A DNA stretch of 63,381 nt, counting the filler, from Reclinomonas americana ATCC 50394 (lineage: Eukaryota): NCBI GenBank assembly GCA_048213135.1. It is 19 parts of 19 records of this genome, joined end to end, with 100 filler letters (N's around TTAATTAATTAA, not from the genome) between each part and the next. Parts side by side here need not be neighbours in the genome. Positions count along the whole stretch, not along the records: positions 45,981 to 49,407 come from AFZH01019522.1; positions 49,508 to 59,088 come from AFZH01019523.1; 17 more parts are not named here. One strand, written 5' to 3'. A program made the translations under genes and the position numbers. Under the pieces are notes generated by a model. That model was not told the origin of the DNA. It did not search any database and was given only the letters and a program-made list of their open reading frames with translations. This document shows positions 1,841 through 63,381 of this stretch, one piece after another. How positions within the stretch are numbered: position 1 is the stretch's first letter; every line of letters begins with the position of its first letter.

Positions 1841-1940
1841 NNNNNNNNNNNNNNNNNNNNNNNNNNNNNNNNNNNNNNNNNNNNTTAATTAATTAANNNN
1901 NNNNNNNNNNNNNNNNNNNNNNNNNNNNNNNNNNNNNNNN
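1841..1940. other. Artificial contig linker N44-TTAATTAATTAA-N44 (first of 18)
   Basis: Identical 100-nt spacers start at 1841, 6820, 10968, 13823, 16812, 18793, 22522, 23891, 26283, 28658, 31776, 34328, 40418, 41845, 45881, 49408, 59089 and 61227. The core gives stops in all six frames. Confidence 0.98.
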
Positions 1941-1986
1941 GCGGGGTGACGAAAGGAGGGAGAAAAGATGCAGACGACGACGCAAC

Positions 1987-10945: not shown

Positions 10946-11824
10946 AGCTGCGCGCCTTTACATATTTNNNNNNNNNNNNNNNNNNNNNNNNNNNNNNNNN
11001 NNNNNNNNNNNTTAATTAATTAANNNNNNNNNNNNNNNNNNNNNNNNNNNNNNNNNNNNNNNNNNNNGAACAGCACAAGGGACAAGGAACAACAGACACA
11101 GGGGGTGAGGGGGGCGACTGAGACAGAGAAGGGAAGGAGGGCGAAGGAAGGGGGGGGGGGGAGAAACGACAGCGAGAAGAGAGGGGCGAGGAAGGCGAAT
11201 TTGTGAAGAAAACTGGGAGAGAGAAGCACGGAGAGAAAGAAGTACCAGACAAGAATCGGATGCGCGCGCCCGCGCACACCTGGACATACACAAACACACA
11301 CACGCACCTGATGTTACATCCACCCAGTCAAATGCCGTCACGTGAATCCTACCGACCAAGAGGCGGGAGAGGACTGCCATTTGGGGATGATTATGCTATC
11401 GAGAGAACAAAATGGGGAAAAAGGTCAGCGAACGCGAACCCACCGCTCTCTCTCGCTGTCTGCTCACTCCACAAACAGGACTCGAGAGAGGAGATGGTGT
11501 ATAGTGCCAAGCAAAAGCACAGAGGACGGGCGATCGAACGCAAGATGCGGCAAGGAAAAGCAGCCGGGTGCACCCACACGCTCATGACAGAGAGAACAAA
11601 ATGTGCGAATAACGTAACAACAACAAGATGCTTCATGCGCACTCGCATCTGCCTCACGCAAAAAGGCACACTCACTCCACTCACTCCCTCTCTCGCTGTG
11701 CATATAGCAACAGTGCGTGTACATGTCTCATCTCACACGCACACACAGCTCAATAGGAAAGAAAAGGCAATCATTCGGCTCGCACAAACAGCACACACAC
11801 ACGCTCGCGCACACTTGCGCAAGT

Positions 11825-11828
<4 letters not shown>

Positions 11829-11866
<38 letters not shown>
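11829..11866. repeat. (CA)n microsatellite in a low-complexity non-coding region
   Basis: Direct CA run. The surrounding 11068-12250 is AG/CA-rich with no credible ORF. Confidence 0.85.
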
Positions 11867-11867
<1 letters not shown>

Positions 11868-12113
11868 CTGGCTACACATACAGAAAACACACTGATGCAT
11901 TGCGTGCTGCGATGAGCCCGCACACACATATAATGGCATATTATGATACACAACAACAACAACAAAAAGGTGCGCACGCGACTCACCCTGTATGTTCACA
12001 CCGGAAAGAAAACAGAGAGAAAGAAAAAAGGAGAGACGCGCTACGCGTGTGCACACAGTGTATCATCCCACAAAGCCAACGTAGGGAGCGTCAAGATTGC
12101 ACGCTTTTCGCAA

Positions 12114-12843
12114 TCAGCAAACCCAACATTGCCGGTGGACTGCATCAGGCTGCTCTCTCTCTCTCCCTCTCGCTCTCTCCACGCTCACACACATGCACAC
12201 GTACACACTCACCAATGGAATTGCCGCATGCATGCCCAACACAAACAAGCCGACGCTGAATCCATAGCCATCTCCAGAGCTGCAGCGTGCGGCAGACTCC
12301 CCGTCCCGCGCCACCGGTGATCCCATCGTCCCTCCCTCATCCATGCCCTCTCCACGAACACTTATCCTTGCAGTTGACGACAGCGAATCCACGCGCGCAG
12401 ATGCTGCATCTTTCCTGGGGTCGCTCTCGTCGTCATCGTCGACTAGCATCGCACACACTGCTGTTGCTGCGCTGCCGCCACCGCTCTCGTCGTCCATCAT
12501 GGAGACTGACTCGTTGGGGATGGAGGGCCGCAGAGGCGGCGAGGGGCGGTGGGTCTCTGAGGCGATGTGCTCGTAGTGGATGCCGCACTCGCCAGTGCCT
12601 GCCGCGTGTGCCGCAAGCGCGGCGAGGTTGACGTCCCCGGGTTGTATCTCATCTGTGCGCGCATGTGTGTGAGAGTGTGTGAGAGGAGAGTGTGCGTGGT
12701 GTTTCTGGGCACTCACCAAGTGCGGCACGAACTCTGGCGAGCACGGCGGCAGAGGGGTAGCCGTGCAGCTCGGGCAGCACCGCTCGCAGCACTGCGAGCA
12801 GTGCGCGCATGCGGGCGCTCAGCCGCTCTTCTGGCTGGTTCAT
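12114..12843 (-). CDS. Hypothetical eukaryotic protein (two putative exons)
   Basis: MNQPEERLSARMRALLAVLRAVLPELHG.. joins in frame via a GTGAGT..CAG intron (12653-12716) to DEIQPGDVNLAALAAHAAG.. No recognisable domain. Confidence 0.35.
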
Positions 12844-13986
12844 GTTGGCCTGCTCGGCGTGCGTGTGTGTGCGGTTCTTGATCGGTCGCTGGGTGAATCA
12901 AATCGACGACGCCGCGCATCTTCGTGATTGATGCCGTATTGCTTGTAGAATTTGATTTCCTAATGTGGAGCCGCTTCAGCGTCGTCTGCTTGCGTGCGCT
13001 GCAGGGGCTCATTGTGTAGCCCACAGAACGAGCTGCAGAGTGCTGTTTGTGAATCAGCGCGGCGACCTTCCGCGGGGGAGAATCACGCATGTGACCGGAC
13101 GTCGACGTTACATTTTGTTGTCGTCGTGCCGACCCCTTTGACCGAAGCGCTGATGTTGTGCCAGAGGTCATCTGGTAGGCGCTTTGCTGGGCTACTGTGT
13201 AAATTCAGAAAAAGCAATGTAGGCGTTCTCAGAAGACCAGGAGGGGTGATGCATGAATCTGATCATGACTTCGCGCCAATGAAAGACGTGCTGCGAGTGG
13301 ACGGTGTGTGGGACCACCACTCTCCGTGTTGACTGTTCCTCGTCGTGGGCGATCATGCCATGTGCATCGGCATGCATGGCTCGTCGACGCATACGTCTCC
13401 TGTTTTCGAAAAACTGGAGCCATCAAATGCATCGCGTCGTGCTCGGGAGGACCTCAGAAAACTCTGAGTGTCTATGAGTGGCTCAATCACGCTGTAATAC
13501 GCCGTGGCAGATATCGCAGTTCTCGATGTGTTCAAGAAGGGGCATGTGGTGAATGCAGTGTTGTTTTCTCCTCGATCGCGAGCGAATTCGAACGCAAGAA
13601 AACCAAGCGAGCTGCCGTTCAAGACAGGCGCTTGCGTTCATAACGTTGGACTTGGTCATCCTGCTTGCAAGGTGGTGAATAATAAATAAGAACTTTCACT
13701 GATCCATACACCAAAAACAAATGAATTGTCGTTGGTGTTGAAAAACAAAACACACACATACACACCAGCGTCGGCGCTTGTCAGCTGCGCGATGCATGCA
13801 GCGTAGGGCCACGGCCGGTGCCNNNNNNNNNNNNNNNNNNNNNNNNNNNNNNNNNNNNNNNNNNNNTTAATTAATTAANNNNNNNNNNNNNNNNNNNNNN
13901 NNNNNNNNNNNNNNNNNNNNNNTGTGTGGGCATGCAAAAAAGACAACTCTGTCTGTGTGCTCGGGTTCGAGCTCACACTCGCGCAG

Positions 13987-14399
13987 ACGCTGAATGCGGC
14001 CAAGTCGACTCTCTCCGAGATCCTCGCGCGTGCATACGGCAGCGCACAGGATGGCAACGTGTCGGTGGAGGTCGGAGTGCAGGCCGGATTCGCCATGGTG
14101 TTGGCGCTGCTGGAGGGACTGCGACATTCGGTGGTTCCGCAACTGGCGGTGGCTGTGTTGACGGCTCTCGAGGCGCAGCTGGCGGCTGTGCATCCGTTGG
14201 CGTTGGTGGATGATCCGGCGCTGCCTGGTGGCCGTGTGTGGCGCCACGTGATGAGTGACTTGTTGCAGTTTCTGTTGCCGCTGGTGCAGAACGACGCGCA
14301 GGATCCCGTGGCGAAACCGGCATTGGGTGTGCTGGCGCATCTGGCAGTGGTGCGTGGCTCGCTGGTGCACCTGCTGCACTTGGTGCTGTACCTGCTTCG

Positions 14400-14430
<31 letters not shown>

Positions 14431-16811
14431 GGAGCGCCTCCGTCGGCATTGGCACGATTCGCAAACTTGCATCAGGTTGGGGAGGAGGCCTTCACTGTGT
14501 GTAATGACGTGTTGCTCACATGCATGGTTGGAGACGCAGATCACTGCGCCGGCGGAGCGACTCTCGTACCCGGTGTTGGAGAATGTGAGGGGCACGTGGA
14601 AGGTGCCGACTGCCGTGGGCATTGTGTATGAGCGCATTTTGGATTTGGTTGCCGGTGTCGATTGCATTTTTGTCGTCGAGAGCTCGTTGGGACTGGGTTC
14701 GTGTGGTGTTAGTCGCTCCATTGTGTACATGCCTGTGTTTCTCCTCACCGTGTCTCATATGGATACAGTCAAAATCGGGTCGGGTCTTGGGAGCTACGGC
14801 GCCGGCTCTGTGGTGGCCACCAACGCTGCGGTGGGTCGTGGGCACGAGCAAGGCTCTCTCGCTCTGGTCGGTGTGCGACTGTACTACCGATCGCCTTCAC
14901 TACCGAGTGGCGTCTGTCTGCTTGTTCTCGACGCGTCGTCGTTGGAGGTGAGTGGGGCATCGACACTGCGAATCTATTATTCGTTTCTAACTGCGTGGTA
15001 GGTGTTGGGCGAGGTTCGCGCCGACGGCAGCGGATCATTTGCATGTGCCGACAACAGCGCTGCCGGCCTGGTACCAGCCGCTGCGGTTGCGTCGCACCGC
15101 TGCGATCGCACGTTAATGCGCATTGATCAGCGTTCTCACTGGTGTTATGATGCAGGCCACTCCATCACGCATCTTCTCCGACGGGCGCTTCTTGTATGTT
15201 CTCGAGAGTCGCAAGACAGACGGTACGCGTCTTTGTCTCACTCTCTCTCTCTCTCTCTCTTCTCTACGCGTGCGTACGCGCTGACACTGTGCTTTTCCTC
15301 GCACAGCTGATGCGGTCGCGGAGAACGAACCGGTAGCGGCCATTGTTGTTGACGCAGCTGCTCCTGCTGCTGCTTCTCCCGAAGTGGAAGACGGAGGACT
15401 GAATTCGGCGTCTGCATCAAATGACAGAGATGAAGATGGTGGCGGAGTTGCTGACGAGGAACACAGTGTGGATGACATTGATGAGCGTAGTGGCGAAGAT
15501 GGCCCTGAGGATGACGACGAAGATGTGGCTTCGGCATCGCACGCTTCGTCACGATCATCCTCCTCTTCGGGTTCCCATGGCTCCTCCTCGTCCAGTTCCT
15601 CGACGCCGTCATTCGAACGTCGGTCGCGCTCCCCTCGCCGGCGTTCGAGAGTCTCCGAGGTGAGTGGACTTTTTGTGTCTGCGAGCAGTGAGTGTTGGTG
15701 TTACTGAACTGTGGGTGCACAACGCCACGACAGTCGACGGTGCACGCACAGGGCGAGTTTGTCGACGCCGAGCCGATCAAAGACCAGCTTCTCAAGTTTG
15801 ACCCTGAGCAGGGCCTGAAATGCGTCGGAGCCGTCACACTCAGTGGCATGCAGCCAGCCTGTGCGTTCTTTGCGTTGCATGCGGTTCTCTGCTTTCCTCT
15901 GTCAGCAGACTCTTAACTGCGGTGCGCAGTGCGCCCAACGCGAGCCTTTCGATGTGGAGCACTGTTGTGGGATCTCGTCTGCAACACGCCAGTGACCACC
16001 GATGCGCATCACACGATGGAGGGTATGTGCGCGTGTACCTGGCTCGCACGCACGCATGTTACGGGGTGTTGACACTGCGGATTGTTTTTTGTCTTGCCAG
16101 CCTGGATCAAAATGTCTCCAGTGCTGGCGGCAACGCGTGGCTTCCATTACTGGATTCTGTCACGCGGCAACGACCAAGACATGCAGATTGGAATTTCGGA
16201 CGGTCGCTACTTTGTGCGCACGGAGGAGCTGTATGCGACGTACCTGGTACCGCCGGGCGACTTCACTCGGTGGGTCCATCTGGCGGCCACCTACGAGAGC
16301 GGTGGACTGCGTCTGTACCGCAACGGCCGCCTGGTGGCTTCACAAGTTGGACCAGAGCCTCCGCGCTCCACTGCCGCCATGTTCATCGGTGGTCACGATT
16401 CTTTTGACTTTTGTGGCCTGTTGTGCGAGGTGAGTTGCCGACGATGACTCTTCTCTCACTCGATCATTTGGTGGAGATGTTGATGTAATGATGGCGCAGG
16501 TTCGTGTGTGGACCTGTGCCCGCACAAGTGCGCAGATTGCGCGCGACTATCGACGACCACTTACCGGCAAGCACGACAACCTCGTCATGTTGCGAAGATG
16601 TGCTTTTGATTGGCTGGCATGCCCGTTCACTCACTTGGGCGGGTGACACACAGCCACGCTCCACTGCGAGAGGGTTGCGGGTGTCATATTTATAATTCGG
16701 TCACGGGTGGCGTGCTGGCCTCGTTCGAAACCGACGACATGTGGGTGGCCAGCGATTTCCCACTGTCCTACACGGATGCCGACGACGCCAGCTGCGTACT
16801 GCCGATCATGG
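13987..16811 (+). CDS. Fragment of a very large HECTD4/HERC/MYCBP2-like protein with a LamG/ConA-like jelly-roll domain (multi-exon, truncated both ends)
   Basis: ALGVLAHLAVVRGSLVHLLHLV resembles the LAxxRGSL motif of HERC1/HERC2/HECTD4. KIGSGLGS..LYYRS..LVLDASSLEV resembles HECTD4/MYCBP2 N-terminal blocks. TMEAWIK..WVHLAATYESGGLRLYRNG..FIGG..FCGLLCEVRVW is a Laminin_G_3 pattern. No HECT domain is visible in the window. Confidence 0.6.
14401..14427 (+). repeat. (CAG)9 encoding a poly-Q tract
   Basis: Nine perfect CAG units in frame within an exon. Confidence 0.9.
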
Positions 16812-45878: not shown

Positions 45879-46112
45879 GGNNNNNNNNNNNNNNNNNNNN
45901 NNNNNNNNNNNNNNNNNNNNNNNNTTAATTAATTAANNNNNNNNNNNNNNNNNNNNNNNNNNNNNNNNNNNNNNNNNNNNCCCCTTCTCCCTTCTCCTTT
46001 CCCCCTCACCCTTTCCTCCTTCTCCCTTCCCCCTTCACCCTTCACCCTTCCCCCTTTCCCCTTCCCCCTTCCCCTTCCCCTCACGCCCTTTCCCCTCCCT
46101 TCCCCCTCGCAG

Positions 46113-47899
46113 CTCCTGGGCACCAGCGCGGACCTCTTCCGCATGGTCCCCATGGCCGTCTTCGTCATTGTGCCCTTCATGGAGCTGCTGCTGCCAATCT
46201 GCTTGAAACTCTTCCCCAACATGCTGCCGTCGACCTTCGAGGACAAGCTGAAAAAGGAGGAGGATTTGAAGCGCGCGCTCAAGGCCAAGCTGGAGCTGGC
46301 CAAGTTCCTGCAGGACACGGTGGAGGAGATGGCGACGCAGATCAAGGGTCCGCGTGCCGCCGAGGCCGCCGCTCTCCAGTCCTTCATTGAGGCTGTGCGT
46401 GAGGGCAAGACCGTCTCCAACGAGGACCTGCTGCGCTTCTCGCCGCTCTTCTCCGACGAAATCACTCTCGACAACCTGTCGCGTCCGCAGCTGGTGGCCA
46501 TGGCGCGCTTCCTCGGCCTGAACGCCTACGGCGCCGACGCCTTGCTGCGTTTCCGTCTGCGCAGCCGCCTGCGCCAGATCAACTCGGACGACAAGCTGAT
46601 TTGGTGGGAGGGTGTGGCGTCGCTCTCGGTGGAGGAGCTGACGCAGGCGTGTCTGGACCGCGGCATCAACACCAAGGGTGTGGCGCGCGCCAAGTTGCAG
46701 CGGGAGCTGCAGGAGTGGCTCGAGTTGTCGAACCAGAAGAGCGTGCCATCCACGTTGCTCATCATGTCGCGGGCGTTTGCCTTTACCTCGAGGTACTCCT
46801 ACTCCATTCGCTCTTCCTCGTTTCTTTGATTCTCCCTCACCTACCCCCTTCTTGCAGCACCTTCCGCGCCCTGCAGGAGACCATTGGCTCGCTCCCCGAC
46901 GAGGTCGTCGACTCGGTGCTCAGTGCCGACAACGAAGCCAAGCGTCGCGAGTCGCGCCTGGAGGCCATTCAGCGGCAGGAGGAACTGATTGCGGAGGAGG
47001 ATGAGCAGAAGCGCAAGAAGGCCGCTGCCGAGCACCACCATGTGCTGACCGAGCAGGAGGCCGTGGCTGCGGCCAAGGAGGCCGCCGAGACCGCCGAGCG
47101 GCAGGCCGAGCAGGCAGCGCAGGCGGCCAGCCTTCCGCCAGTGCCGTCTGCCGTGGAGTCACCAGTGGTGTTGTCATCGTCGTCGTCGGCGGCGTCGACA
47201 ATGGCGGCGGCGGAGACTGCTCCGTCAACCACTGCCACCATCACGGGCGATGCGGTAGCGACGACGGCGTCGACAGAAGACGATGCTGACGAGGAGGTGA
47301 CACTGACAAAGATTCGCGAGATCAGCGAGGCTGTGTCGGTGCTGGCCGCCGCCAGCGCCACGCTGCGCGAGTCGACCGAGTTGGAGGAGCTGAAGCGCGA
47401 TCGTGCCGACCTGCTGGCCTCGCTGCTGGCCACTCGTCTGTACCCGGACGCCGCGGAGACGGTGGATCCGGAGCTGCGCAAGCTGGGCGCGCTGGATCAG
47501 AAGCTGTCGCGCATGATTGTGAAGCTCGACGAGGAGATTCGCGCCGTCGACCGCCAGATCGGCACCGGCCTCAACCTGCTCGACAAGGACCGCGACGGTA
47601 TTGTGACGGTGCAGGAGCTGCAAATGGTGCTGTCGCTGCTGCGTGACCGCCCGAGCGACGACAAGGTGGTGGCGTACATTGTCAGCCGGCTGGATCCGGA
47701 CGGTGACGGCCGCGTGGTGCTCACCGAGCTGGAGTCGGCCATTGATCGGCTGGAGATGATGGAGGAGGAGGAGATTGAGGAGATTGATGTGGAGCCAAAG
47801 CAGGCGGTCGTGGCGGCTGAGAAGAAGGAGGTGGAGAAGCCGAAGAGACGGACGAAGAAGAGCAGCAGCAGCAGTAAGGCCAAGTCGGCCGCAGAGTGA
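46113..47899 (+). CDS. LETM1: LETM1 mitochondrial inner-membrane protein with C-terminal EF-hands (5' exons missing; intron 46793-46857)
   Basis: ADLFRMVPMAVFVIVPFMELLLPICLKLFPNMLPSTF, KLELAKFLQDT, FSDEITLDNLSRPQLVAM, DDKLIWWEG, WLELS..VPSTLLIMSRAF; EF loops DKDRDGIVTVQE and DPDGDGRVVLTE. Confidence 0.95.
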
Positions 47900-48102
47900 T
47901 TTGTTGTTGTTGTCGTAAGTGTTTGCTTGTTTGTTTGTGTGTGTGTGTGTTAGTGTTGTTGTTGTTTGCGTGTTTATAGTCGGCAGCGATGATGATGTAG
48001 TGGGCAGCGTTTCGTACTCAATTAAAAGCTGCAGTTGATGGGCAAGAGAAGGGGAGAAAGGGGAAGGGAGAAGGAGAAGGGAAAGGGGAAGGGAGAGGAA
48101 GA

Positions 48103-48136
<34 letters not shown>

Positions 48137-48174
48137 CACATGCAAACTTGATCATCAAGGCAGCTTATGGACGA

Positions 48175-49180
48175 ACAAGAGACATGCTACGCGGCACAGT
48201 ACGCGTGTGCATGTTACGCCTCTCTCACGTGGAATGGTGTCGCCTGAGAGGTCGCCTAGTGGTGTTAGCAGCCTACGCGACTCTCGCAGTGTCCATCTAT
48301 CTGTGGTATGGAACGGGGCATTCCGGTGATTCTTGCGTTCCAGGCCGATAAGGGAGAGAGAGAGAGGGAGGGATACAAGATAGCTTTGAATGCTGATACT
48401 GGAATTGCATTGGTCACAACGTCGGCAAGGAGAGGATTTTGCTTTGGATACGACGTCGCCTTCTGCGAGTAGACAGCTGGTTACGCTGTTTGGTAATTGT
48501 GGGTTGTGGCGAGCGCTGTGCGTACAAAAACACGCCTGCGTGTCCTTCAGGTCCTGATCAATCACACGTGTTCCGCTCAACGCACAAGACCATGCTACGC
48601 GGCACAGTACGCGTGTGCATGCTGCGCCTTTCCCGCGTGGAATGGTGTCGCCTAGGCGGCCGCCTAGTCGTCCTCGCAGCCTATGCCACCCTCGCAGTGT
48701 CCATCTATCTGTACATGTGGTACGGGACGGGCATTCCGGGGATTCTGGCGTTCCAGGCCGATAAGGGAGAGAGAGAGAGAGGAGAGGGAGGGATGCAAGA
48801 CAGCTTTGAATGCTGATATTGGAATTGCATTGGTCACAACGTCGGCATGAAGGAGATTTCAATATCTGGATTCAACGATGCCTCCCATGAATACAAAGCT
48901 TGCTTCGCCGTTTGGTAATTGTGGGTTGTGGTGAGCGCTGTGCGTACAAAGAGACGGCTGCGTGTCCTTCACGAGTCCTGCAATCACTCACACGTGTGTG
49001 TTCCCTTCCTCTCGCGACAATGTTACGCGGCACAGTACGCGTGTGCATGCTGCGCCTCTCTCGCGTAGAGTGGTGCCGCCTAGGTGGTCGCCTTGTGGTG
49101 TTAGCAGCCTACGCGACCCTCGCAGTGTCCATCTATCTGTGGTACGGGACGGGCATTCCGGTGATTCTTGCGTTCCAGGC
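48175..49180 (+). repeat. Three tandem copies (period 408 and 428 nt) of the upstream region plus first ~53 codons of the DHHC gene
   Basis: ATGs at 48184, 48592 and 49020 each begin MLRGTVRVCMLRLS; the inter-copy spacers are also homologous. Confidence 0.92.
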
Positions 49181-50496
49181 AGAGAGTATGCATCATTATC
49201 TGTGTCTGGCGTGGGCGTGGACGCAAGCGCTGTTGGGAGTGCCGATCTTTGGGAACATTGTGGCAAATTACGCCTTGGCGATATGGACGGATGCGGGGAT
49301 GCCGGGAGGTGAGGGAAGGGAGTGAGAGGGAGGGAAGGGGGTGAGAGAGAGAGAGAGAGAGAGAGGGAATCGAAGAATGTGATTGTGTTCATGCACTTCA
49401 TCATTGTNNNNNNNNNNNNNNNNNNNNNNNNNNNNNNNNNNNNNNNNNNNNTTAATTAATTAANNNNNNNNNNNNNNNNNNNNNNNNNNNNNNNNNNNNN
49501 NNNNNNNTGAGTCCGAAAGGACTCTGTCGTTTCGCTGACTGCTTTTTCCTCTCCCCGCGCGTTTTAGCTCCCGCCTGGTGTCACCGTCGACGACTTGAAC
49601 ACTCTCCGCTTCCTGTTCATCCTGTCGTGCACATTCGGTGGCATTCTCGGCGGCCTCGGCGTGTGGCACACGTACTTGTTGCTGACGGGGCAGACGACGT
49701 TGGAGTGGGTGGTGAATCGGGAGCGCAAGGCGCATACACCAGTTGCGTGGAAGAAGGGGAGGGTGGGGGAATGGAGAGGGAGAGGGGTAAGGAGTGGGGG
49801 AGGGGAGAGGGAGAGGGAGAGAGGGAGAGAGAGAGAGTGTGTGTGAGAGAGAGAGGGAGCAGGTGGGTTGGCCTATCCGGCCTGGACGCGAAAAATATTT
49901 GTCGACAAGGACTGCAAGCCTTCATCTGGTTGTGGGCGTTGTAGTTGTATGAGAAAGTCACAGGGAGTTGCTGGCCTGCGACGGTGTTCGAATTGTGGTC
50001 CTGAGTGTGTGTGTGTGAGAGAGAGAGAATGGTGACGAACGAGGGGGCACGGATGAGGACGAAGGATGTGCATGCTGCAGAAAGACTGAGAGAGAGAGAG
50101 AGAGAGCGAGAGCATGAGCGTGTTTGCACGGACCGCGATGGGGGGTGAGAGAGGAAGAAGATGGAGTGAGCTGTACAGACTGACAGAAACAAGTGAGAAT
50201 GAGAGAGAGGTGAGGGAGGAGGAGAACGGGTGAGCAATAATGACTAATCGTTGCAACACCGCTTCGTCGCAGAGCTACCGCAATCCTTACGACCGCGGCT
50301 GGAGACGCAACTGTGAACTGGTGCTGGGTCCGATGCGCAAGTTGCGTGACAGCATACCTCGCTTACGGATCCGCTGTCATAAACTCACACTCCCCCTCCA
50401 CTCGCCTCACGCAGTTGGTGGTTGGTCTACTGGGTGCCCGGGTACCGCGTCGATCCGCCTCGGGGCTCATCGTACACCACCGAAGAGTACGTTTAG
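49020..50496 (+). CDS. DHHC palmitoyltransferase (ZDHHC16-like), multi-exon, spanning a linker that hides the DHHC domain
   Basis: Exon 49020-49308 has two TMs ending NYALAIWTDAG (DPG-like motif). After the gap come GLGVWHTYLLLTGQTTLE (TTxE), YRNPYDRGWRRNCELVLG and a final exon ending at TAG 50496. Joining across the gap is inferred. Confidence 0.75.
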
Positions 50497-50574
50497 GCGG
50501 CATGCGTCGACCGCAAACAAGATGATTTCCCAGTGTAGACATAGTGGGTTGCGTGGAAAGCACGATACGGGCAA

Positions 50575-51100
50575 CCAAGCAGCAGCAGGTGGTGTCTCGC
50601 AGGTATTGTAACCATCTCTGAAGACGTGAACGCCGACGTCGGAATGCAGCGGGTAGTCAAACAACAGCAGGTGGTGTCTCATCTCGGAGGACGTCGTCGC
50701 CGACGTCGGAATGCAACGTGCAATCAAGCAACAGCACAGGTATTACCACCATCTCGGCTGACGTGCCGACGTCGGATTGCAACCTCCTTTCTGCTCGCCA
50801 GAACCATAGATGACGTGCATGGCCAAGGGTGAGACTGCGCCTCCTGCGCTTCTCCGACGCCACGAGCAATCGTCGGCGTCGGAGCTGCAATGTCGAACTT
50901 GCTTCCTCGGCGTCTCTACCATCTCTGATGTCGTGCATGTCGCCGGAGAGCAGCAAGTTCCACTGTTTTGCCAACTTCGCCTACTGACCGTATCTCCACC
51001 ACCTCTGAAGTTGTGCACGTCGCGACGTGCGGCGACTGCTGCCGGTTGCAAATCGAGCTTTTCCCTTGTATTCGCTCCGTCTCCGAAGTTGCGTACATGC
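50575..51100. repeat. Degenerate tandem repeat containing three perfect CCGACGTCGG palindromes
   Basis: Palindromes at 50633, 50700 and 50766 (spacing 67 and 66); a related CATCTC(T/G)G..ACGT motif recurs to about 51100. Confidence 0.7.
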
Positions 51101-51205: not shown

Positions 51206-54200
51206 ATGGCACTTGAGTCTCGTGGAGTCTTCCTCAACGCCACTGGAGAAGAGTGGCTTGCGCAGGACAGCGATGATGATGATGACGACGAAGGAACAAG
51301 CATGCAGAAGGCGCGAAAGAAGCCTTCTGCGGGTACAATGAGTGCGGAGCAAGTCTGGCAGCGCGTGCTCAATGTTGAGTGAGAGGAGAGAGAGAGGGAG
51401 AGGGAGGGAGGGAGGGAGGGAGGGGGGAAGAGAGAGACAAGTGCGTGCAAGTGTGTGCAAGTGTGTGCAAGTGTGTGTATGTGTGTGGAAGTGTGTGGAA
51501 GTGTGTGGAAGTGTGTGCAAGTGTGTGGAAGTGTGTGGAAGTGTGTGGAAGTGTGTGCAAGTGTGTGAGTGTGTGCGAGTGTGTGCAAGTGTGTGCAAGT
51601 GTGTGCGAGTGGTGTGCAAGTGTGTGCAAGTGTGTGGAAGTGTGTGGAAGTGTGCGCAAGTGTGTGGAAGTGTGTGCAAGTGTGTGGAAGTGTATGCGAG
51701 TGAGAGAATGACTGCAGATTGCAAATCAGTGACTGTTAACAGTGATTTTCCTGTCTCACTCACTCTCACCCTCTCTCTCTCTCTCAGTGGAACTGGAAAG
51801 ACGTTTTCCGCGCTGTTCTCCCCGACGATATCAACCGTGCAGACAACATTCAAGTTTTCTCATCCTTTTTTTTGTTATTGTTGTTATCAGTCTTCACTTG
51901 TCTCTCATCTCTTGTCGCCGGGAAACAGCTGGAGGGTCCTCTCGTGCTGCAAGTCGGTCGCATTCGCAATGTGACTGCGCCTGCGCATGCGCAGGATCGT
52001 GAGCCGGCACTGTTGCAGGTATCGTTGACCGATGGGCATATCATTACGCATGGAGTCTCGTATGGAAGGTTCGACGAGCAAGGAGGAGAGAGGGAGAGTG
52101 TTGACGGGCGTGACTCACTTGCGTTGTTTTGGTGTGCTGCATGCAGTCTCGGGAAAGAGATCACGTGAGTCGCTTGTGAGGGATGAGTCGCTTTTTCTTG
52201 TTGGTGCATCCCTCCTTGTCGCTCCTCTCGCTGCTCTCGCTGCTCTCGTTGCTCTCGCTGCTCTCGCTGCTCTCGTTGCTCTCGCTGCTCTCGCTGCTCT
52301 CGCTGCTCTCGCTGCTCTCGTTGCTCTCGCTGCTCTCGCTGCTCTCGCTGCTCTCGCTGCTCTCGCTGCTCTCGTTGCTCTCGCTGCTCTCGCTGCTCTT
52401 GCTGCTTACGCTGCTCTCGCTACTCTGGTTGCTCCCTCTTGCTAGCTGCTCACTCTCTCGCTCTCTCTCTCTCTCTCTCTCGCTCGCTCTTCGCTCCCCC
52501 TTTGCCTTCCTCACCAACTATCATGCTCCTGCTAGCATCAACACACCCCCCGGCACCAAGGTCGAGCTGCGGGGCGTGACGGTGCGAAATGGCACATTGT
52601 TGCTCACGCCGAGTTGCATCCGCGTGGTGGGCGGCCGCGTCAAGGATCTGTACGAGGCGTGGGCGTTGAAGCGGGTTTGTGTACATTGATTTGTGGCGTG
52701 TGCGTGCATGTCGTGCTGATCATGCGCGTGGTTGCCAGGAACACGGTCGACTTCGTGGTCACTTTTCCGTCAAGGCCGCCGAGGCGTACGAAGCCACAGC
52801 TGCGGCTGCGCAAGGAGCCAGTGGTTCGGCGGCGCCCGTGGCTGGTGGACCGCCGCCGTTCAAGCCCCTCCCCAAGGTGCGTCGTGCTCATAGGCTCTTG
52901 TTCTTCTTTTCATTCATCCTGTCGGCCGCGCAGGGCATGCTGGGGCGCAAGATTCCGCTCGCGCAAACTTCCTTTGTCGGCACCGGCTACCAGGGGCAGC
53001 GAAAGCCGCTCACGGTCAGGGAGGAAACGTGCAGGAGATTGTCCATCGCATGTTCGCCCCTCTCACCCGTCTTGCTGCAGGGCTGGAACGCCTCGGGCAG
53101 CAGCACCGAGCCTGGTGGCTCTGGCTTGGCGTCGACGACGCCCGCGCAGCCTGGGAAATCTGCGTCTGTGCCACCTCCGCCGCCGCCACCGTCGCGCCCC
53201 ACCAACAAACCAGCCGGAGGCAACGACCGTGATCACGACGACGATGATGACGATGACGGGGACGACGAAGGCAAGCGCCTTAGTGGCTCGGTGCGCGGAC
53301 CGCCCAGTGCACGCGGCAAAGTTGGTGCGCTCGAAGAGTTGTGTTTACTGTCGCACGCATGTGCACGTCGCTCACAGCTGTATTGCTGGCGCAGGTTTTG
53401 AGAGTCAGCGAGGGGGTCGTGGTGGTCGCGGTGGTGAGTGAAGAGGGGAAGGGCGACAAGTTGTGAGGGTAGAGAACAAGAGCAGGCGCTTTCCGATTGG
53501 AGGAAGGGGACAATAAGTCGAGGGACGCAGAGGGAGAAAGCATGTGAGGGACGCGGAAGGAGATAGGCGGTGAGGATCGCAGAATGAGAAAATCTGTGAG
53601 AACAGAGAACGAGTATGGCAGCGAGGATCGCAGAAGGAGAGAGCCAGTGAGTAGCAGAGAAGGAGTACGATATTTATGAAGGCAGAAGACAAAATCTGTG
53701 GAAGCCTGTGACGAGGAACAGAGAAGGCGAAAGGGAGTGAGGAGAAGCCGGCGACGGATGAGGGGATGAGGGAGAAGAAGAAAGAAAGTTGATTACTTAC
53801 CGGCGTGAGAGCCAGGAGAGGACAAAGAGAGTTGGTCGTGTCGAGTGAAGGAGACAGAACTGAGTGGATTCCGTCGCAAGGCAGTTGGTTGCTGACCTCA
53901 TTCTTTCAGGTCGAGGTGGCCGTGGACGCGACCGTCCATTCAGTGCTGATTACCGAGGCGGAGCGGTGCAGCGTTTCGTATTTTCCTGCGAATGTACCTG
54001 CTGTGAATCATGACTCACTATATGCACACGCAGTGACAATGCAGGAGCATGCGAATTACTGTTGCGTCGCTTGGAATCGAGGAACACTCTGTATGCTGTG
54101 TTGCTCATCTCTCCGATAACAACAACAGCGACCCTCGAGTCCATGGGCTTTGTGGATCGCGATCAGTCCGCCGAGGCTCTGCGGAGGGCCGATGGCAACC

Positions 54201-57200
54201 TGCAGCAGGCGATCGAGCTGCTCGTCAGCGGCGCGGTGGTGCGTGTTTCCTTGGCATGACCTTATACAAAGCATGCTGACTGATGGCGTCTTACCGCAGC
54301 CGGAGGGTCCACAGATTGGCGCTTTCGACGGTGGCGACGACGACGACTTTGGCGTCGAGGATGACGGTTACTTGGGCGGATCGGGACGGGGTGGGCGTGG
54401 CGGGCGCGGTCAGAGATTCGAGCGGCGGCCGCGAGGAGGTGGCGGTGGTCGAGGTGGACTTGGTGGAGGTCGGCAGGAGTTTGACGGTGGGCGGCGACCA
54501 CAGTCGGCGCCGTATGCGCGAGATGATGAGGGGGCGGTGAGGCGGAAGCGGGGGAGAAGGGGTGGAGAAGAAAAGCAGTGATTGACACATTGCGTAGCAG
54601 CAGGCTCGCCCTGGTGGTGCACCGCGGCCTCCTCCTCCTCCGCCGCCGCCTCCTCCTCCTCCTCCCTCGAAGCCGGCGGCTCCGCCTCCGTCGTCGTTGG
54701 ACGCGGGGCGTGCGCTTGATTTGAGCGCTGCGGCATTTGTTCCGCGGAGATCTGATGTGCCGTCGCTGATTCAGGAGATGGTGAGTCGTTAGAATACGGC
54801 GTTTGTGTAGCAGCAATCTCAGTGCCGTGGTCGGTAGGCTGCGGCAAGCAATCAGTTTCAGCAATCGAGTCGGAGAGGTGCGTGCGTGGTGGAGGGTGAA
54901 TTCGATTTTGGCGTGCTTTGTTGAGATCTTGATGCGTTTTTTAATGTGACAAGGTGGCCGAGGCGGTCAGCATCACGAAGGCAAGTGTTCATGAGGGGGT
55001 TCGATGCGTAACTTCAACTTTTGCAACTCACTTCCCACGTTGTGCAGGCGGACGAGGCGGCCAGCAGTACCAAGGTGTGTAGTCGCCTGCTTTCAGAACC
55101 GAAGTCAACGCTTACCCTCTGCTCGTTGCGAAGGTGAACGAGGCGGTCAGTACCAACATGGTGAGCTGCCCGACAGTTTTCGATACTCTCCTTGTTGAAA
55201 CTAGTCTTTCTGTGTGGCGCAGGTGGACGTGGTGGTCAGCACTACGAAGGTGTGCAGTCGTCTGCTCGCAGCATATCTCACTTGTCTACTCTCACATTCG
55301 GCTTGTTGCAAAGGTGGTCGAGTAGGTCAACATTTCGAGGGTGAGCTGCTGCTGACGACCACAACACCGCCTCCTTGTCGAAACTTACCTTTCTCTGTGG
55401 CGTAGGTGGACGTGGCGGTCAGCACCAACGTGGTGAGTGCTTCTCGCTCATCAAGGCGGCTTTCACTTTCGTCTCTCACTGACGTGACAGACGACCGACC
55501 AGGAGCGCAACAGCAGCAGGGAGGAGCACCGCGGCCGCAGAGTTGCGTTGCTTGTGTTTTGTGTATTCCAGGTACGGGTGCTGAGTGTTGGCGACAGTTG
55601 CTGGTGCACCGCCGCCGCCACAACAACAAGAACAGCAGCAGCATCAAGGAGGTGGAGGAAACCGCGCCCCCCGGCCACAGAGTTGCGACTGTGTGGCCTT
55701 CATTGTTGCTTTGTGTGTGGGTTGCTTAGTGTCTGTGACAGGTGCTGGTGCTCCGCCGCAGCAGCAACAGCAGGCACCACCGCAGCAGCAACCACCACAG
55801 CAACAGCACCAGCAACAGCAGCAGCAACAACATGGAGGAGGAAACCGCGCTCCCCGGCCACAGAGTTTCGATAAGTGGCCTTGATTCCTGCTTTGTGTGT
55901 GGTTTGCTTAGTGTCTGTGTCAGGTGCTGGTGCGCCGCCGCAGCAACAGCAAGCGCAGCCGCAGCATCAAGGAGGTGGAGGTCGCGCTCCTCGACCAGAG
56001 AGTTACGTCTGATTGGCCTTGCGTGCCACACTGTGTGTTGCTTGCTGAATGTCGGCGATAGGTGCTGGCGCGCCGCCGCAGCAGCAACAGCAGGCACCAC
56101 CGCAGCAGCAGCAGCAGCAGGGAGGAGGAAACCGCGCTCCCCGGCCACAGAGTTACGACTGCATGGTCTTGATTGTTGCTTTGTGTGTGGGTTTCTTAGT
56201 GTCTGTGTCAGGTGCTGGTGCGCCGCCACCGCCACCTCCACAGCAACAGCAGCAGCAGGGAGGTGGAGGTCGCGCTCCTCGACCACAGAGTTGCGTCTGA
56301 GTGGTTCGTGCATGACATTGCGTGCTGGATACTCACTTCCGCCTCTCGTAGGTGCTGGTGGGCCTCCGCAGCCGCATTCACAGCAGCAACCAGCGATCAA
56401 CGTTCAAGAAGCTCAATTGCCGCAGCAAGGTTTGTGGTAAGAAGGGTGAATCCGAGATGCGTCCTTGTGAATTGACGGGCGATTGCAGATCGTGGTGGCG
56501 GTCGTGGTGGTCGCGGCGGGCGTGGTGAGACTGGGCGTTGATGATCATGTTCTCGGTTGTCGTTTTTCACACCGTGTGTACAGGTGGGCGTGGAGGCCAG
56601 CATCATCAAGGTTGATCTTGTTGCGTGTGTATGTGCGCTCTTGGTGAGACGCTCATCCCTTCGCACAGGTCGCGGTGGTGGTGATGGCGGTCGCAGCGAG
56701 CTGCAACAGCCGCAACAAGCAGGTCTGTCCGTGTTTCTCATGATGCACATGCTGCTCTGCAGTGACATTATGTCGTTGTTTCTCCAAAGGACGCGGTGAC
56801 CAGCAGCCACAGCAGCAACGACAAGGAGGTCTATCCGTGTCTCTCATGATGCGCATGCTGCTCTGCAGTGACATTATGTCGTTGTTTCACCACAGGACGC
56901 GGTAACCAGCAACCACAGCCACAACAAGCAGGTTCGTCCGTGTCACTCATGATGCACATGCTGCTTGCAGTGACATAATGTCGTTGATTCTCCGCAGGTC
57001 GCGGTGACCAGCAACCACAGCAGCCACGACAAGGAGGTTTGTGTGCGACAACCGCAATGTTTTCCGTGGTTTGCTCACTCACTGTTCTGGGTTTCGTGCA
57101 GGACGAGGTGGTGAGCAGTAGTAGCAGCGCATGCACACCTAATGGCGACGCAGATTAGCAAAGTCCTGACCGGAGAACGATGCACACAAGTACCGTAGTG

Positions 57201-59441: not shown

Positions 59442-60533
59442 TCACAAGGCACCCTCTAGAAAGCATCGACGATCAACAACCTCCGCCTCCTCGACCAGGA
59501 AGCAGCGCAGTACGATCTCCACCAAGCACCACCGATCCTCCTCTTCTTCTGCCTTCTCCTCGGCCTCCTGCACGGCGCACATGGCCCGACGCGCCGTGTC
59601 GAGCTCCTGCCGCGCGAGGCCGTACGGCGTCGACCACACGCGCACGGACTTGTCACGACTGCCACTCACAATGCACTGACCGTGGGGGGCGACGGCGACG
59701 CACAACGCCGTAGCCGTGTGTCCCTCCAGCCGACGCACCTCCTCTCCACTCGCCAGCGACCACACGCGCACCGTGCCATCTTCGCTGCCGCTCACAACGT
59801 GCCGGCCATCGGCGGTGACGGCGACAGATATCACTCTCTCCGTGTGTCCACTCCACCGTCGCACCTCCTCGCCCTCCTCGCCACCCGTTGCCAGCGACCA
59901 CACACGCACAGTCTTGTCGAAACTGCCGCTCACGACGTGCCGGCCGTCGGGCGTAAAGGCGACAGATATCACTCTCTCCGTGTGTCCACTCCACCGTCGC
60001 ACCTCCTCGCCCGTCGCCAACAACCACAGCCGTACACTCTGATCGCCACCTCCGCTCACCACGTGCACCCCGTCGCGGGTGATGGCGAGCGTGTTTACAA
60101 AGTGCCTTGGTGGCCACTCCAATCGCCGCACTTCCTCTCCACTCGCCAGCGACCACACTCGCGCAGCAGCTGGACATCCGCTCACCACGTGCTGCCCGTC
60201 GGGAGTGACGGCGACTGCAAACACATAACGCTCGTGTCCCTCCAATTGCCGCACTTGTTCTCCACTCGCCAGCGACCACACTCGCACAATCTTATCCGCG
60301 TGTCCACTCACAACATGCTGCCCGTCGGCACTAAAGACCACGGACAGCACCCTGCCACGGTGTCCCTCCAGTCGTCGCACCTCGTCGCCACTCGCCAGTG
60401 ACCACACACGAATGGTGGTGTCGAAGCTGCCGCTTGCAACGTGCTGACCGTCGGGAGAGACGGCGATGCAATACACGTCGACGGTGTGCCCCAGCAGGCT
60501 TTTGCAGGGGAGAGTGGGGGGCGGAGAGGTCAT
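59442..60533 (-). CDS. Intronless WD40 repeat protein (7 repeats plus acidic C-terminal tail)
   Basis: Seven GH..V..V..PDG..VVSG..D..VRVW units; likely start MTSPPP at 60533. Confidence 0.92.
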   Translation of the reverse strand: MTSPPPTLPCKSLLGHTVDVYCIAVSPDGQHVASGSFDTTIRVWSLASGDEVRRLEGHRGRVLSVVFSADGQHVVSGHADKIVRVWSLASGEQVRQLEGHERYVFAVAVTPDGQHVVSGCPAAARVWSLASGEEVRRLEWPPRHFVNTLAITRDGVHVVSGGGDQSVRLWLLATGEEVRRWSGHTERVISVAFTPDGRHVVSGSFDKTVRVWSLATGGEEGEEVRRWSGHTERVISVAVTADGRHVVSGSEDGTVRVWSLASGEEVRRLEGHTATALCVAVAPHGQCIVSGSRDKSVRVWSTPYGLARQELDTARRAMCAVQEAEEKAEEEEDRWCLVEIVLRCFLVEEAEVVDRRCFLEGAL

Positions 60534-60775
60534 GGGGAAGAGAGAAGAGGAGGAGAAGAGCAGAAGCAGCACACAGTGCACGCTCGAGCTCGAGAGACTG
60601 ATATGATTGCAATGGCCGGATTGGGACAAAGAAGTCGAAGTTGAGCGATCCATGTTGGGTACATTGACAGGCAGAAGCACCCAGCTACATAAACGTAGCG
60701 CAACAAGAAACACAAAGAGACAACAACAGAAAAGGAAATCCTCTCCCACTCTGCTTCCCAGAATTCTCTATCTCG

Positions 60776-61226
60776 TCACAGACGGAGACTATCGTCCGCG
60801 GCACATCGATTGACGATGACTTCGGCCTCCTCGACCAGGAAGCAGCGCAGTACGATCTCCGCCAGGCACCGCGGATCTTCTTCATCCTCGTCTTCCTCGC
60901 CCTCCTGAAGCATCTCCTGCACGGCGCGCATGGCCGTCTTCGCGCATGCAAGCTCCTCTCTCGCTAACGCGTATGGCGTGGACCACACGCGCACAGAGCC
61001 ACCATAACTCCCGCTCATAATTCGCTGACCATCGGGGGTTACAGTGACAGTGCGCACCGGCGCAGTGTGTCCCTCTAGCCGTCGCCATTCAGCTCCACTC
61101 GTCACTGACCACACTCGCACTGACTGGTCATAGCTCCCGCTTACAACGTGGCGACCGTCACACGTGAACACAACCGACATAACCCACGAAGTGTGTTCAA
61201 ATCGCTGCATCTCTCGCCCACTCTCG
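60776..61226 (-). CDS. Paralogous WD40 repeat protein (5'-truncated)
   Basis: Two WD repeats and the same tail VRVWSTPY.LAR.EL..CL.EIVLRCFLVEEAEV. Confidence 0.88.
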
Positions 61227-61326
61227 NNNNNNNNNNNNNNNNNNNNNNNNNNNNNNNNNNNNNNNNNNNNTTAATTAATTAANNNNNNNNNNNNNNNNNN
61301 NNNNNNNNNNNNNNNNNNNNNNNNNN

Positions 61327-62422
61327 AGGAGAAGGAGAAGATGGACTGAGTGAGAGAGGTTGTGCTGCAACAACAAGTGTAGCCGGCGCAATACCGCAAT
61401 CCAATTTGTGATAGTTGTTGTTAGACATACTGAGGTTTCTGAAGTAGAACGATCAGGAGCCAACTCATTTCAATCTCGTCGTCTCCAATCGTTCTACTTT
61501 TATTTGCTTGTTCTGAGCATAGGCAATACATTGTAGCATTCAGACTTTTCGTCTCTCTCATCGCAAGTCCACCACTCCACCCGCCCACCACCATGTCTCT
61601 TGCCCCCATTTGTTGGTGACTGATCGTCACGGAAGAAAGTACATGCGCACCACTCGCACTCAACCGACCAACAAACTCCTCGCACAAACACACTCGCCCA
61701 CCGCGAATGAGCACATGGGTACCCGACTGGGATCTCGCTGAAGACATCATCGCACCCTCCATGGCCGAACGACGCGCCTCATCCTCGTCAGCAGCAGCTC
61801 GTCTCGCAGTCGCTGATGCACTGTTTGGCGCCTCAGAAGAAGCAGAAGGAGAAGAAGATGATGGACTGAGTGAGTTTGTGCTGCAACAAGTGTAGCCGAC
61901 GCAATACCGCAATCCAATTTGTACATGCGCACTCCTGCTCAACCGACCAACAAACTCCTCACACACAAGCCCACCGCGAATGAGCACATGGGTACCCGAC
62001 TGGGATCTCGCTGAAGACATCATCGCACCCTCCATGGCCGAACGACGCGCTTCCTCTTCATCAGCAGCAGCTCGTATAGCAGTCGCTGATGCACTGTTTG
62101 GCGCCTCAGAAGAAGCAGAAGGAGAAGAAGATGATGGACTGAGTGAGGCTGGTGCTGCAACAAAAGTGTAGCCGACGCAATACCGCAATCCAATTTTGTA
62201 CATGCGCACTCCCGCTCAACCGACCAACAAACTCCTCACACACTCGCCCACCGCGAATGAGCACATGGGTTCCGGACTGGGATCTCGCTGAAGACATCAT
62301 CGCACCCTCCATGGCCGAACGACGCGCTTCCTCTTCATCAGCAGCAGCTCGTATAGCAGTCGCTGATGCACTCTTTGGCGCCTCTGAAGAAGCAGATGAT
62401 GATGGACTGAGTGAGGTTGTGC
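61327..62422 (+). repeat. Tandem copies (period 273 and 277 nt, plus a partial copy at the contig start) of a gene's upstream region and first ~56 codons
   Basis: ATGs at 61707, 61980 and 62257 each begin MSTWVPDWDLAEDIIAPSMAERR; a 3' remnant of another copy lies at 61327-61410. Confidence 0.92.
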
Positions 62423-62580
62423 TTGCGGGAGGTGATCATGTGCGCCCCGAGTCCGCTGCGCGTGTGCGTGCTGCGCGGGAGTGGGTGGGCGGGAGTGGGT
62501 TGTTTGGTGAGTTTCTGCGAGTGGCGCCGGTGTTGGCGGGCGCGCAGACGGCGATGGAGACGGAGCAGAGAGTGGCGATG
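62257..62580 (+). CDS. First exon of a possible histone deacetylase-family gene
   Basis: RPESAARVRAAREWVGGSGLFGEFLRVAPVLA..VAM followed by GTGAGA resembles the HPE.P.R..GL..P..A..VH start of HDAC domains; the remainder is not in the window. Confidence 0.45.
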
Positions 62581-62659
62581 GTGAGAAGGGGAGGAGAAGG
62601 GGAGGAGAAGTGGGGGTGGAGGGGAGGAGAAGTGGGGGAGAATGTGAATTCGCACATTT

Positions 62660-63381
62660 GTTGGGCAAGATGGGTGTGTGTGTTTTCGAGTGTTTGTGTG
62701 TGTGTGAGTGTGGGAGAGAGAGAGAGTGAGAGAGAGTGAGTGTGTGGAAGAGAGAGAGAGTGTGTGTGAGATAGAGCGTGTGTGTATTTGTGTCAGAGAG
62801 TCTCTCTCCTCACTCTCTCTTGCTTGTGTGTGAGTGAGAGTGTGAGTGTGTGTGAGAGGTAGTGTGTGTGTGAGTGTGTGTGAGGGAGTGTGTGTGTTTG
62901 AGTGAGTGTGTTAGTGTGTGTTTGTGTCAGAGAGATCTTCTCACTCTCCTCGCGCTTTCTTGCTTGTGTTTGAGCGAGTGTGAGTGAGTGTGAGTGCTAG
63001 AGTGTGTGTATGAGTGTGTGAGAGTGTGTGTCTTTGAGTCTGTGAGCGAAGGCGTTTGTGTCAGAGAGATCTCGTCTTCTTTTTTTTCTCTTGTCTCCTC
63101 TCTCCCTGTCTCTCTCTTCCTCCCTCACTCGCTTGTGTGTGAGTGAGCAAGAGAGATAGAGATAGAGAGTGAGAAGGAGTCGGACATCAGTCGTGTTTGT
63201 GATCTTTGTTGTCATATCTTGTCATCTCACAACCTTCTGTGTAAGCCATCCCTCTCTCTCTCTCCCTCACTCCCTTCCCCCTCACCCTTTCCCCTTCATT
63301 CCCTCCCCCCTCACATCTTCTTCACTCCTCTCTCTTTGTGTGAGCCTGCCCTTGAACATCTCTTTCTCTCTCTCTCTCTCT
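62660..63381. repeat. GT/GA/CT microsatellite-rich tract, probably intronic
   Basis: Continuous dinucleotide low-complexity sequence. Confidence 0.85.

Follow-up and report, generated by a model that had tools for sequence, protein, structure and literature searches.

Tandem arrays of alternative 5′ exons make up the protocadherin and UGT1A clusters, and microProteins are short single-domain proteins that are derived from larger proteins and act on these parents. Truncated 5′ duplicates of genes are, as a rule, dismissed as non-functional from the outset. It has been reported for Drosophila Gr39a that tandem alternative 5′ exons are spliced to shared exons and that the duplicated exons have a history of purifying selection (PMC2204066). 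In the review by Katju, partial gene duplicates 'with recruitment' are given as 21–76% of the young duplicates in worms and flies; the recruitment duplicates treated there are mostly young, with a synonymous divergence (dS) of 0–0.1, and have often been regarded as pseudogenes (Katju, 2012; PMC3449122). In draft assemblies, a similar appearance can be produced by false heterotype duplications, for which gaps between the copies are described as the usual finding (Ko et al., 2022; PMC9516828). In this study, we analysed a stretch of DNA of 63,381 bases (hereafter the window) from the protist Reclinomonas americana ATCC 50394 (assembly GCA_048213135.1), in which the start of a gene, putatively coding for a DHHC-type membrane enzyme, is present three times in tandem. 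We show here that the three copies of the coding part have diverged in a codon-periodic manner, almost entirely at silent positions, and that the two truncated copies have one truncation junction in common.

The threefold array and its codon-periodic divergence

The window is not one natural molecule but a chain of 19 contigs (~1.3–9.6 kilobases (kb) each) with 18 artificial linkers between them, each made up of 44 N, TTAATTAATTAA and 44 N (100 nucleotides (nt) in all). The start-codon array sits entirely in one N-free contig (45981–49407). An initial annotation, made from the sequence by eye, had described the promoter and first exon of a DHHC gene as being triplicated in tandem here, and this was borne out: Tandem Repeats Finder reports a repeat at 48171–49180 with a period of 422 nt, 2.4 copies, 81% matches, 4% indels and a score of 1330, and a repeat search found a 134-nt core three times, at 48184, 48592 and 49020 (100, 81 and 90%, respectively). 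The same three positions are the ATGs of what we call segment a, a stretch of 54 codons that begins with the ATG and encodes a peptide with a basic N-terminal end and a hydrophobic stretch. Together with spacer b, a non-coding stretch of 245–260 nt that opens with CGATAAGGG(AG)n, segment a makes up the 422-nt unit.

The three copies are complete to different degrees. Upstream of copy 1 lies a GA-rich tract (48040–48136) ending in (AG)17 (48103–48136, period 2, 17 copies), and only 47 nt separate this tract from the ATG, so that the long spacer preceding copies 2 and 3 is lacking; by alignment, any counterpart of spacer b in this place is limited to about 13 nt at most. Segment a1 of copy 1 (48184–48346, + strand) contains an extra G in the run at 48315–48318, which results in a frameshift as assembled, and the open reading frame (ORF) is 55 amino acids (aa) long (48184–48351). 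It is followed by spacer b1 (48347–48591), a GA tract and then non-coding sequence with blocks near-identical to spacer b2, from which copy 2 presumably gets its promoter and 5′ leader. Copy 2 (48592–48816, + strand) is an intact ORF of 74 aa, consisting of segment a2 (48592–48759) and a 19-aa tail, derived from the spacer, after the 55th codon. The sole indel within a2 is a 6-nt in-frame insertion, and the residues specific to this copy are a YM insertion, G48 and the tail DKGERERGEGGMQDSFEC; its hydropathy profile has one hydrophobic segment (windows 24–42 and 25–43, mean Kyte–Doolittle (KD) values 1.66 and 1.85). Spacer b2 (48760–49019) lies directly upstream of the full gene start, whose promoter and 5′ leader it would contain. 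Copy 3 (49020–49308, + strand; segment a3, 49020–49181) is the real first exon. As had been noted initially, only this copy continues: its frame (open over 49020–49325) extends unbroken for 42 more codons, with a second hydrophobic segment and the ending ...WTDAGMPG, and reaches the donor GAG/GTGAGG at 49308/49309 (GT at 49309–49310), while copies 1 and 2 run into the AG tract. The hydropathy windows of copy 3 are 25–43, 34–52 and 70–88. With regard to the spacers, a search of 45981–51000 against Rfam gave no family, bar a chance-level miRNA match at 47169 (E=0.94), and no tRNA was found in them. As a separate observation, the palindrome CGACGTCG is present in spacer b1 (about 48454–48461) and absent from b2.

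The codons of the three copies were compared over the 54 codons of segment a. Copies 2 and 3 differ by 16 synonymous codons, one replacement (V/G at codon 48) and the 6-nt in-frame insertion, exactly as counted in the initial annotation; between copies 1 and 3, for which about 10 synonymous and two non-synonymous codons and the extra G had been noted, the recount gave 11 synonymous codons, two replacements (H/R and R/G) and the extra G; and copies 1 and 2 differ by 14 synonymous and three replacement codons. Over the whole of segment a the copies differ by 9–12%. The formal comparison that had been recommended, carried out by the Nei–Gojobori method, resulted in a dS of 0.36–0.48, a non-synonymous divergence (dN) of 0.017–0.039 and a ratio of the two (omega) of 0.036–0.084, with Fisher p values of 8e-7, 2e-6 and 1e-8 for the three copy pairs. 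The 26 variable sites are distributed 4/2/20 over the first, second and third codon positions (P=6.7e-6). When the observed base changes were put at random on matching bases, with 5000 trials per pair, not one trial (0/5000 for each pair) had as few replacements as the real sequences, the random means being 9.4–12.9 against the 1–3 observed. Among the six frames, + frame 1 alone is both open and biased towards synonymous change. Selection on an antisense frame was considered and rejected, as in the long open minus frame copies 1 and 2 differ by 2 synonymous but 16 replacement codons.

The spacers served as an internal control. In the alignment of b1 with b2, 205 of the 235 aligned sites match, 30 are mismatches and a further 35 columns are gaps; along the spacers, 30-nt windows that are conserved alternate with variable ones, and the mismatches have no three-base periodicity (3/2/2 and 9/8/3), i.e. 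the spacers have diverged in a non-coding manner. Neutral decay, which had already been thought insufficient to explain the bias, is excluded by these data, since the bias is robust to the mutation spectrum, is specific to one frame and is absent from the spacer.

When the changes were polarised by majority rule, the three branches differed from each other. The copy-2 branch has 11–12 base changes with one replacement codon, a number as low as this being reached in 0/5000 random placements; 7 of its 11 polarised changes are towards C, and the frequency of C at third positions is 0.44 in copy 2 compared with 0.31 and 0.35 in the other two copies. On the copy-3 branch there are seven base changes, all of them synonymous (P=0.0006). 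The copy-1 branch has eight base changes, all transitions and seven of them towards A/T, with two replacement codons (P=0.036). Purifying selection on each coding copy, as expected of an array of alternative first exons, can thus be detected in all three copies, strongly in copies 2 and 3 and weakly in copy 1, and from the pattern of changes copy 2 looks constrained and copy 1 looks as if it is decaying. The initial annotation had proposed translation under selection, as micro-proteins or alternative first exons, or else capture from diverged alleles or paralogues; its inference of selection is supported, clearly for copy 2 and weakly for copy 1.

A second array with the same layout is present at 61641–62580 (+ strand), 13 kb from the first along the joined window, in the contig 61327–63381. 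It consists of 2.7 copies of a 277-nt unit, and the tail of a further unit is found at the contig start (61327–61410). In each unit, some 66 nt of upstream DNA precede an ATG (61707, 61980 and 62257) and 56 codons, which encode an acidic, non-membrane N-terminus, and the gene is unrelated to that at the first locus. Again, the frame of the last copy alone continues, to ATG/GTGAGA at 62580/62581. Over the 56 shared codons, eight variable codons are synonymous and two are replacements, the sole indel is 9 nt long and in frame, and 10 of the 11 variable sites, as read from the codon table, are at third positions. The pairwise permutation P values of 0.0006–0.022 are conservative, because the tests also counted two unalignable codons past the breakpoint. 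A promoter cassette common to both loci was looked for and rejected, the local alignment scores being reached by 45–235 of 300 shuffles. At both loci the homology ends at AG, which is followed by G. In a stretch of 17 kb there are two unrelated genes that each possess a threefold array of promoter region and N-terminal codons in which the cut-off copies are open and have changed in a near-silent manner, and this suggests that the host genome often makes and keeps arrays of gene starts.

Origin and possible use of the truncated copies

Copies 1 and 2 have an identical junction between segment a and spacer b, and this junction is spanned by the longest word (32 nt) that units 1 and 2 share exactly. 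It follows that the truncated unit was formed once and was then duplicated, and that the divergence between copies 1 and 2 postdates the truncation, unless sequence was imported afterwards. This order of events favours the view that the truncated copies have been translated under selection over the view that they were captured from paralogues. A collapse of the assembler on the (AG)n tract was considered as the origin of the junction and was rejected, as the junction reads GGC-CGATAAGGG-(AG)n rather than GGC-(AG)n and is the same in two diverged copies.

According to the reading that we favour, which we regard as plausible and put forward tentatively, the array arose long ago through a genuine tandem duplication of part of the gene, and translation takes place from the truncated copies, or from copy 2 at the least; the products would be short membrane peptides, or else the copies would be used as alternative starts of the gene. 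The unit duplicated would consist of spacer b (promoter-proximal, with the GA tract first) and segment a (which encodes the first transmembrane helix together with a basic tail at the N-terminus), and three such units would now follow one another head to tail, with a LETM1-like gene on one side and the remainder of exon 1 of the probable DHHC-type enzyme on the other. Since the truncation, purifying selection would have acted on the segment-a peptide of the truncated copies, with the clearest signal in copy 2, and it is for this reason that we infer the peptide to be translated. Copy 2 could be an alternative promoter together with a first coding segment, which would be joined in frame to the remainder of exon 1 at the acceptor-like ...TTCTTGCGTTCCAG/GC, the end of a3. 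Use of this kind would need a non-canonical AG/GC donor at the a/b junction, and it would account for the likeness of two unrelated genes, for the free-running tails and for the conserved blocks in the spacers. Copy 2 is preceded by b1, which has near-identical blocks in common with b2 in front of the real start; this is compatible with a promoter of its own, though it is not evidence of transcription. Alternatively, copy 2 might give rise to a 74-aa single-pass membrane peptide, for which no splice would be needed; this form is less credible where two unrelated N-termini are concerned, and the peptide would lack a conserved C-terminus. Copy 1 is probably decaying, to judge from the missing long spacer, the frameshift as assembled, the AT-ward transitions and the weak signal of selection. 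Should the copies be used, either extra promoters would have been gained with the protein unchanged, or short membrane peptides would be arising from enzyme genes.

A wider version of this proposal is that host genes commonly carry arrays of 'promoter + first coding part' in which every copy is used and joined in frame where the homology ends; we consider this improbable. The joining would have to be brought about by an unconventional AG/GC...AG/G splice into an exonic acceptor or by recombination at the DNA level. If true, a single protein would be expressed under a number of promoters that are diverging from each other, a kind of multiple gene start for which there would be no description as yet; our comparison with the literature was not aimed at protists, and we do not claim that the phenomenon is absent from print.

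Several findings weigh against the proposal that the truncated copies are in use. Most directly, a usable canonical 5′ donor, as would be expected at the end of each upstream copy in an array of alternative first exons, was not found at the end of either. Past the shared ...TTCCAGGC, copies 1 and 2 read CGATAAGGGAGAGAG..., and as had been stated in the initial annotation there is no GT at the breakpoint, CGATAAGGGAGAGAG following directly. The homology to copy 3 ends at ...TTCTTGCGTTCCAG/GC, which resembles a splice acceptor; past it, copies 1 and 2 read GCCGATAAGGGAGAGAG, which is like the GA-rich intron starts of the same gene but without the GT. After ...TTCCAG both copies read GCCGATAAGGG, so that a non-canonical GC donor is the only option, whereas GT opens every intron that we read by eye in these contigs (4/4). 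A GT is present inside segment a (CCG/GTGATT), but it is lost in copy 2, which reads GGG. Furthermore, past ...QADKGERER a 7-nt difference in the AG tract puts the tails of copies 1 and 2 into different frames. The tails are unconserved, so that a peptide standing alone would lack a conserved C-terminus, and the constraint is confined to the part in common with the real start of the gene. The frame of copy 1 is shifted in the sequence as assembled. In addition, between copies 1 and 2 the proportion of synonymous sites that differ (pS 0.35) is greater than that of alignable spacer sites (0.13; Fisher p=0.0012). This excess would have to be explained by constraint on the spacer, by patchy gene conversion or by a-segments imported from elsewhere. 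The data are also small and poor, comprising 54 codons, three sequences and a low-quality draft with bacterial contigs in it.

The last of these explanations for the excess of silent divergence leads to an alternative that we think unlikely, namely that the truncated copies are silent relics: the synonymous changes would have been acquired in full-length paralogues or homeologues and then imported by gene conversion or unequal crossing-over, which would have spread the junction too. The synonymous divergence in excess of the alignable spacer divergence is what such an import would leave behind, and the identity between units 1 and 2 is indeed a mosaic, with 30-nt windows ranging from 30/30 and 29/30 down to 16/30 and a near-identical junction. 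Moreover, 16 of the 20 differences between a1 and a2 are in codons 11–33, and the raised frequency of C at the third positions of copy 2 looks as if it had come from another context. However, a donor for such an import could not be found: blastn and tblastn detected no other segment a in the window, and the 96-aa exon-1 product has no relative among 1.84 billion representatives at E<=0.001 (HMMER) and none in a word-indexed protein search. Furthermore, to paste one junction onto a full-length gene would need a conversion tract with a loop of kilobases, and the same course of events would have to have recurred at the second locus.

It is also conceivable, although we judge the chance to be small, that the array is an artefact of assembly or sample, in which diverged strains or haplotypes were threaded into a longer array (from e.g. 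a-b-a-Y), so that the copies would in part be orthologues under ordinary purifying selection. The nature of the window, with its short contigs and artificial linkers, its admixed bacterial contigs and its low coverage, invites this explanation; the gene is interrupted by a gap, the additional G in copy 1 resembles a homopolymer error, and the divergence of the spacers (13% plus indels), while above what is usual for alleles, is possible for strains. Misassembly is nevertheless not favoured by the sequence of the contig. No N lies between the copies or anywhere else within 45981–49407, such a gap between copies being the hallmark of false duplications in the published account (PMC9516828); each a-to-b and b-to-a junction has unique flanks, and the longest exact words common to the units are only 30–34 nt. 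Even an artefact would still require at least one true a-to-b junction, i.e. one truncated copy, and random duplication of haplotypes does not predict that both loci would be at gene starts. If the arrays were assembly products after all, they would serve as a caution to those who scan draft genomes of protists for selection.

Finally, it is very improbable that selection on the truncated copies is indirect, unexpressed copies being occasionally converted or contracted into the working copy and the damaged chromosomes weeded out: this general mechanism would be applicable to two unrelated genes and would fit the restriction of constraint to the part homologous to the working copy, with the tails free, the in-frame indels within the homologous part at both loci and the mosaic pattern of identity, but on population-genetic grounds a dS of 0.36–0.48 implies that conversion is about as rare as mutation, the selection induced (about the conversion rate times s) would be too small unless the population were enormous, and the shift of copy 2 to C-ending codons would be left unexplained.

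The gene, its neighbours and the host

DHHC enzymes have two membrane helices before and two after the catalytic domain, and the motifs TTxE and NPxDxG follow the last helix. The gene that starts at copy 3 is broken by the linker at 49408–49507, which lies between the end of exon 1 (49308) and an exon at 49568, where the cysteine-rich domain with the DHHC (Asp-His-His-Cys) motif would be expected, and the motif is absent from the frames read on either side of this linker. The later exon, presumed to be of the same gene (49568–49762, + strand), encodes a hydrophobic segment followed by ...GQTTLEW... and has the probable donor AGG/GTGGGG; two hydrophobic segments are present in exon 1 and one in this exon. 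Two further exons, the last of the gene, were read by eye at 50273–50340 (SYRNPYDRGWRRNCELVLGPMR..) and 50415–50496 (..WWLVYWVPGY..), both on the + strand, with the stop codon TAG at 50494–50496. The sequences TTLE and NPYDRG in the frames past the linker seem to resemble the C-terminal motifs of DHHC enzymes.

In a comparison with the Pfam DHHC profile (PF01529), the exon at 49568–49759 matched profile positions 96–131 of 133 with E=0.0033 and 17.9 bits, below the cut-off of 28.7, and it represents a fragment only; exon 1 and three other products, out of six scanned, gave no match to the Pfam DHHC profile. As only a fragment could be scored, the sub-threshold score lowers the claim to DHHC identity but does not exclude membership of the family. 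In the Atlas search, the exon at 49568 had a match to a DHHC cluster at rank 8 (0.89), which we regard as a lead only, and the best match of the 96-aa exon-1 product (0.78) was uninformative. The exon at 49568 had no match in the word-indexed search or in the PDB, the exon with NPYD had none in the PDB, and a 30-nt pattern common to the three gene starts had none in metagenome contigs or genome contigs. The gene is probably a DHHC gene, as named in the initial annotation, but this is weakly supported, the sub-threshold Pfam match being in the next contig. That exon 1 and the exons from 49568 onwards belong to one gene is presumed from the order of the contigs; in the bacterial part of the chain, the contig order follows the reference genome G001. 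Just past the presumed stop codon, at 50568–50783, there are three direct repeats 67–82 nt apart, two of which contain GCCGACGTCGGAATGCA with CGACGTCG as its palindromic core and the third a shorter form.

The left boundary of the array is formed by a LETM1/EF-hand gene, of which the last two exons can be seen (46112–47899, + strand; stop codon at 47897–47899), with a GT..AG intron read by eye at about 46793–46856. The open frame 46113–46826 had 3888 matches at E<=0.001 carrying the Pfam domain PF07766, and EF-hand_7 was matched by 47201–47896 (E=2.2e-8). The named best relatives of the LETM1 domain are from heterolobosean amoebae and plants. As the best identities of this domain are only 51–59%, a sequenced close relative of the host seems to be absent from the protein collections.

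The assembly is a mixture of protist and bacterium at low coverage, since the contigs within 16912–45880 (ten or so) are 95–100% identical to scattered, colinear pieces of a single contig of a bacterium with a 6.4-Mb genome (G001). Only the bacterial contigs were matched by this genome, the region 47900–49400 having no match in it. From 45981 onwards the contigs are eukaryotic and contain GT..AG introns, tracts rich in GA and CT and numerous microsatellites, and those in 1–16811 match neither the protist part nor the bacterial part.

Other repeats were observed in the eukaryotic contigs. At 56715–57042, a 106-nt unit is repeated in tandem (3.1 copies, 86%) and reads as a 39-nt mini-exon followed by a gt...cag intron, so that it would be a tandem exon duplication; a 138-nt unit is repeated at 55804–56304 (3.6 copies, 71%). 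On the minus strand at 59442–61270 there are two adjoining, diverged genes of WD40 repeats with a similar C-terminal tail (..VRVWSTPY.LAR.EL...EIVLRCFLVEEAEV..), which are tandem paralogues, the second being cut by the contig end. With the 106- and 138-nt repeats and these paralogues all found in the eukaryotic contigs, small tandem duplications are clearly frequent in the host genome. Two long arrays of short period are present at 51438–51702 ((CAAGTGTGTG) x 26.6) and 52219–52495 ((TCGCTGCTC) x 24), the latter inside an open frame that reads as leucine/serine repeats.

Relation of the array to described systems

One of the systems with which the array can be compared is that of the microProteins. 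Copy 2 is like them in that it is a short ORF which arose by partial duplication and keeps one element of the parent, the first transmembrane helix; however, the copies of the array have no conserved C-terminus, and to our knowledge the transmembrane helix of a DHHC enzyme is not known as a microProtein module.

The array can also be compared with arrays of the Gr39a type, in which, as in our case, several related 5′ coding segments are found in tandem upstream of one gene body (PMC2204066). In such arrays each variable exon has a normal donor and provides a different protein variant, whereas a1 and a2 end without a GT donor. Here, the joint would also be inside exon 1, and the peptides are near-identical, with 1–3 replacements in 54 codons; therefore any gain from the additional copies would be regulatory rather than one of protein diversity.

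The array also resembles the false heterotype duplications described by Ko et al. (PMC9516828) in that diverged copies of part of a gene adjoin each other in a fragmented draft, but it differs from them in being located in a gap-free contig, with unique junctions and a difference of 9–12% between the a segments.

The array agrees with the definition of partial duplicates with recruitment. Segments a1 and a2 align to codons 1–54 of copy 3 and are followed by tails that come from spacer b and cannot be aligned to exon 1, and like the duplicates in the review by Katju the truncated copies comprise the 5′ part of the ORF only, have a short new tail from flanking non-coding DNA and lie in tandem beside the parent (PMC3449122). 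In contrast to the cases reviewed there, the copies have a dS of 0.36–0.48 and an omega of 0.04–0.08, the truncated unit has itself been duplicated, and what was duplicated are only 54 codons together with the promoter region. For a partial duplicate with recruitment, the array is unusual in its age and constraint.

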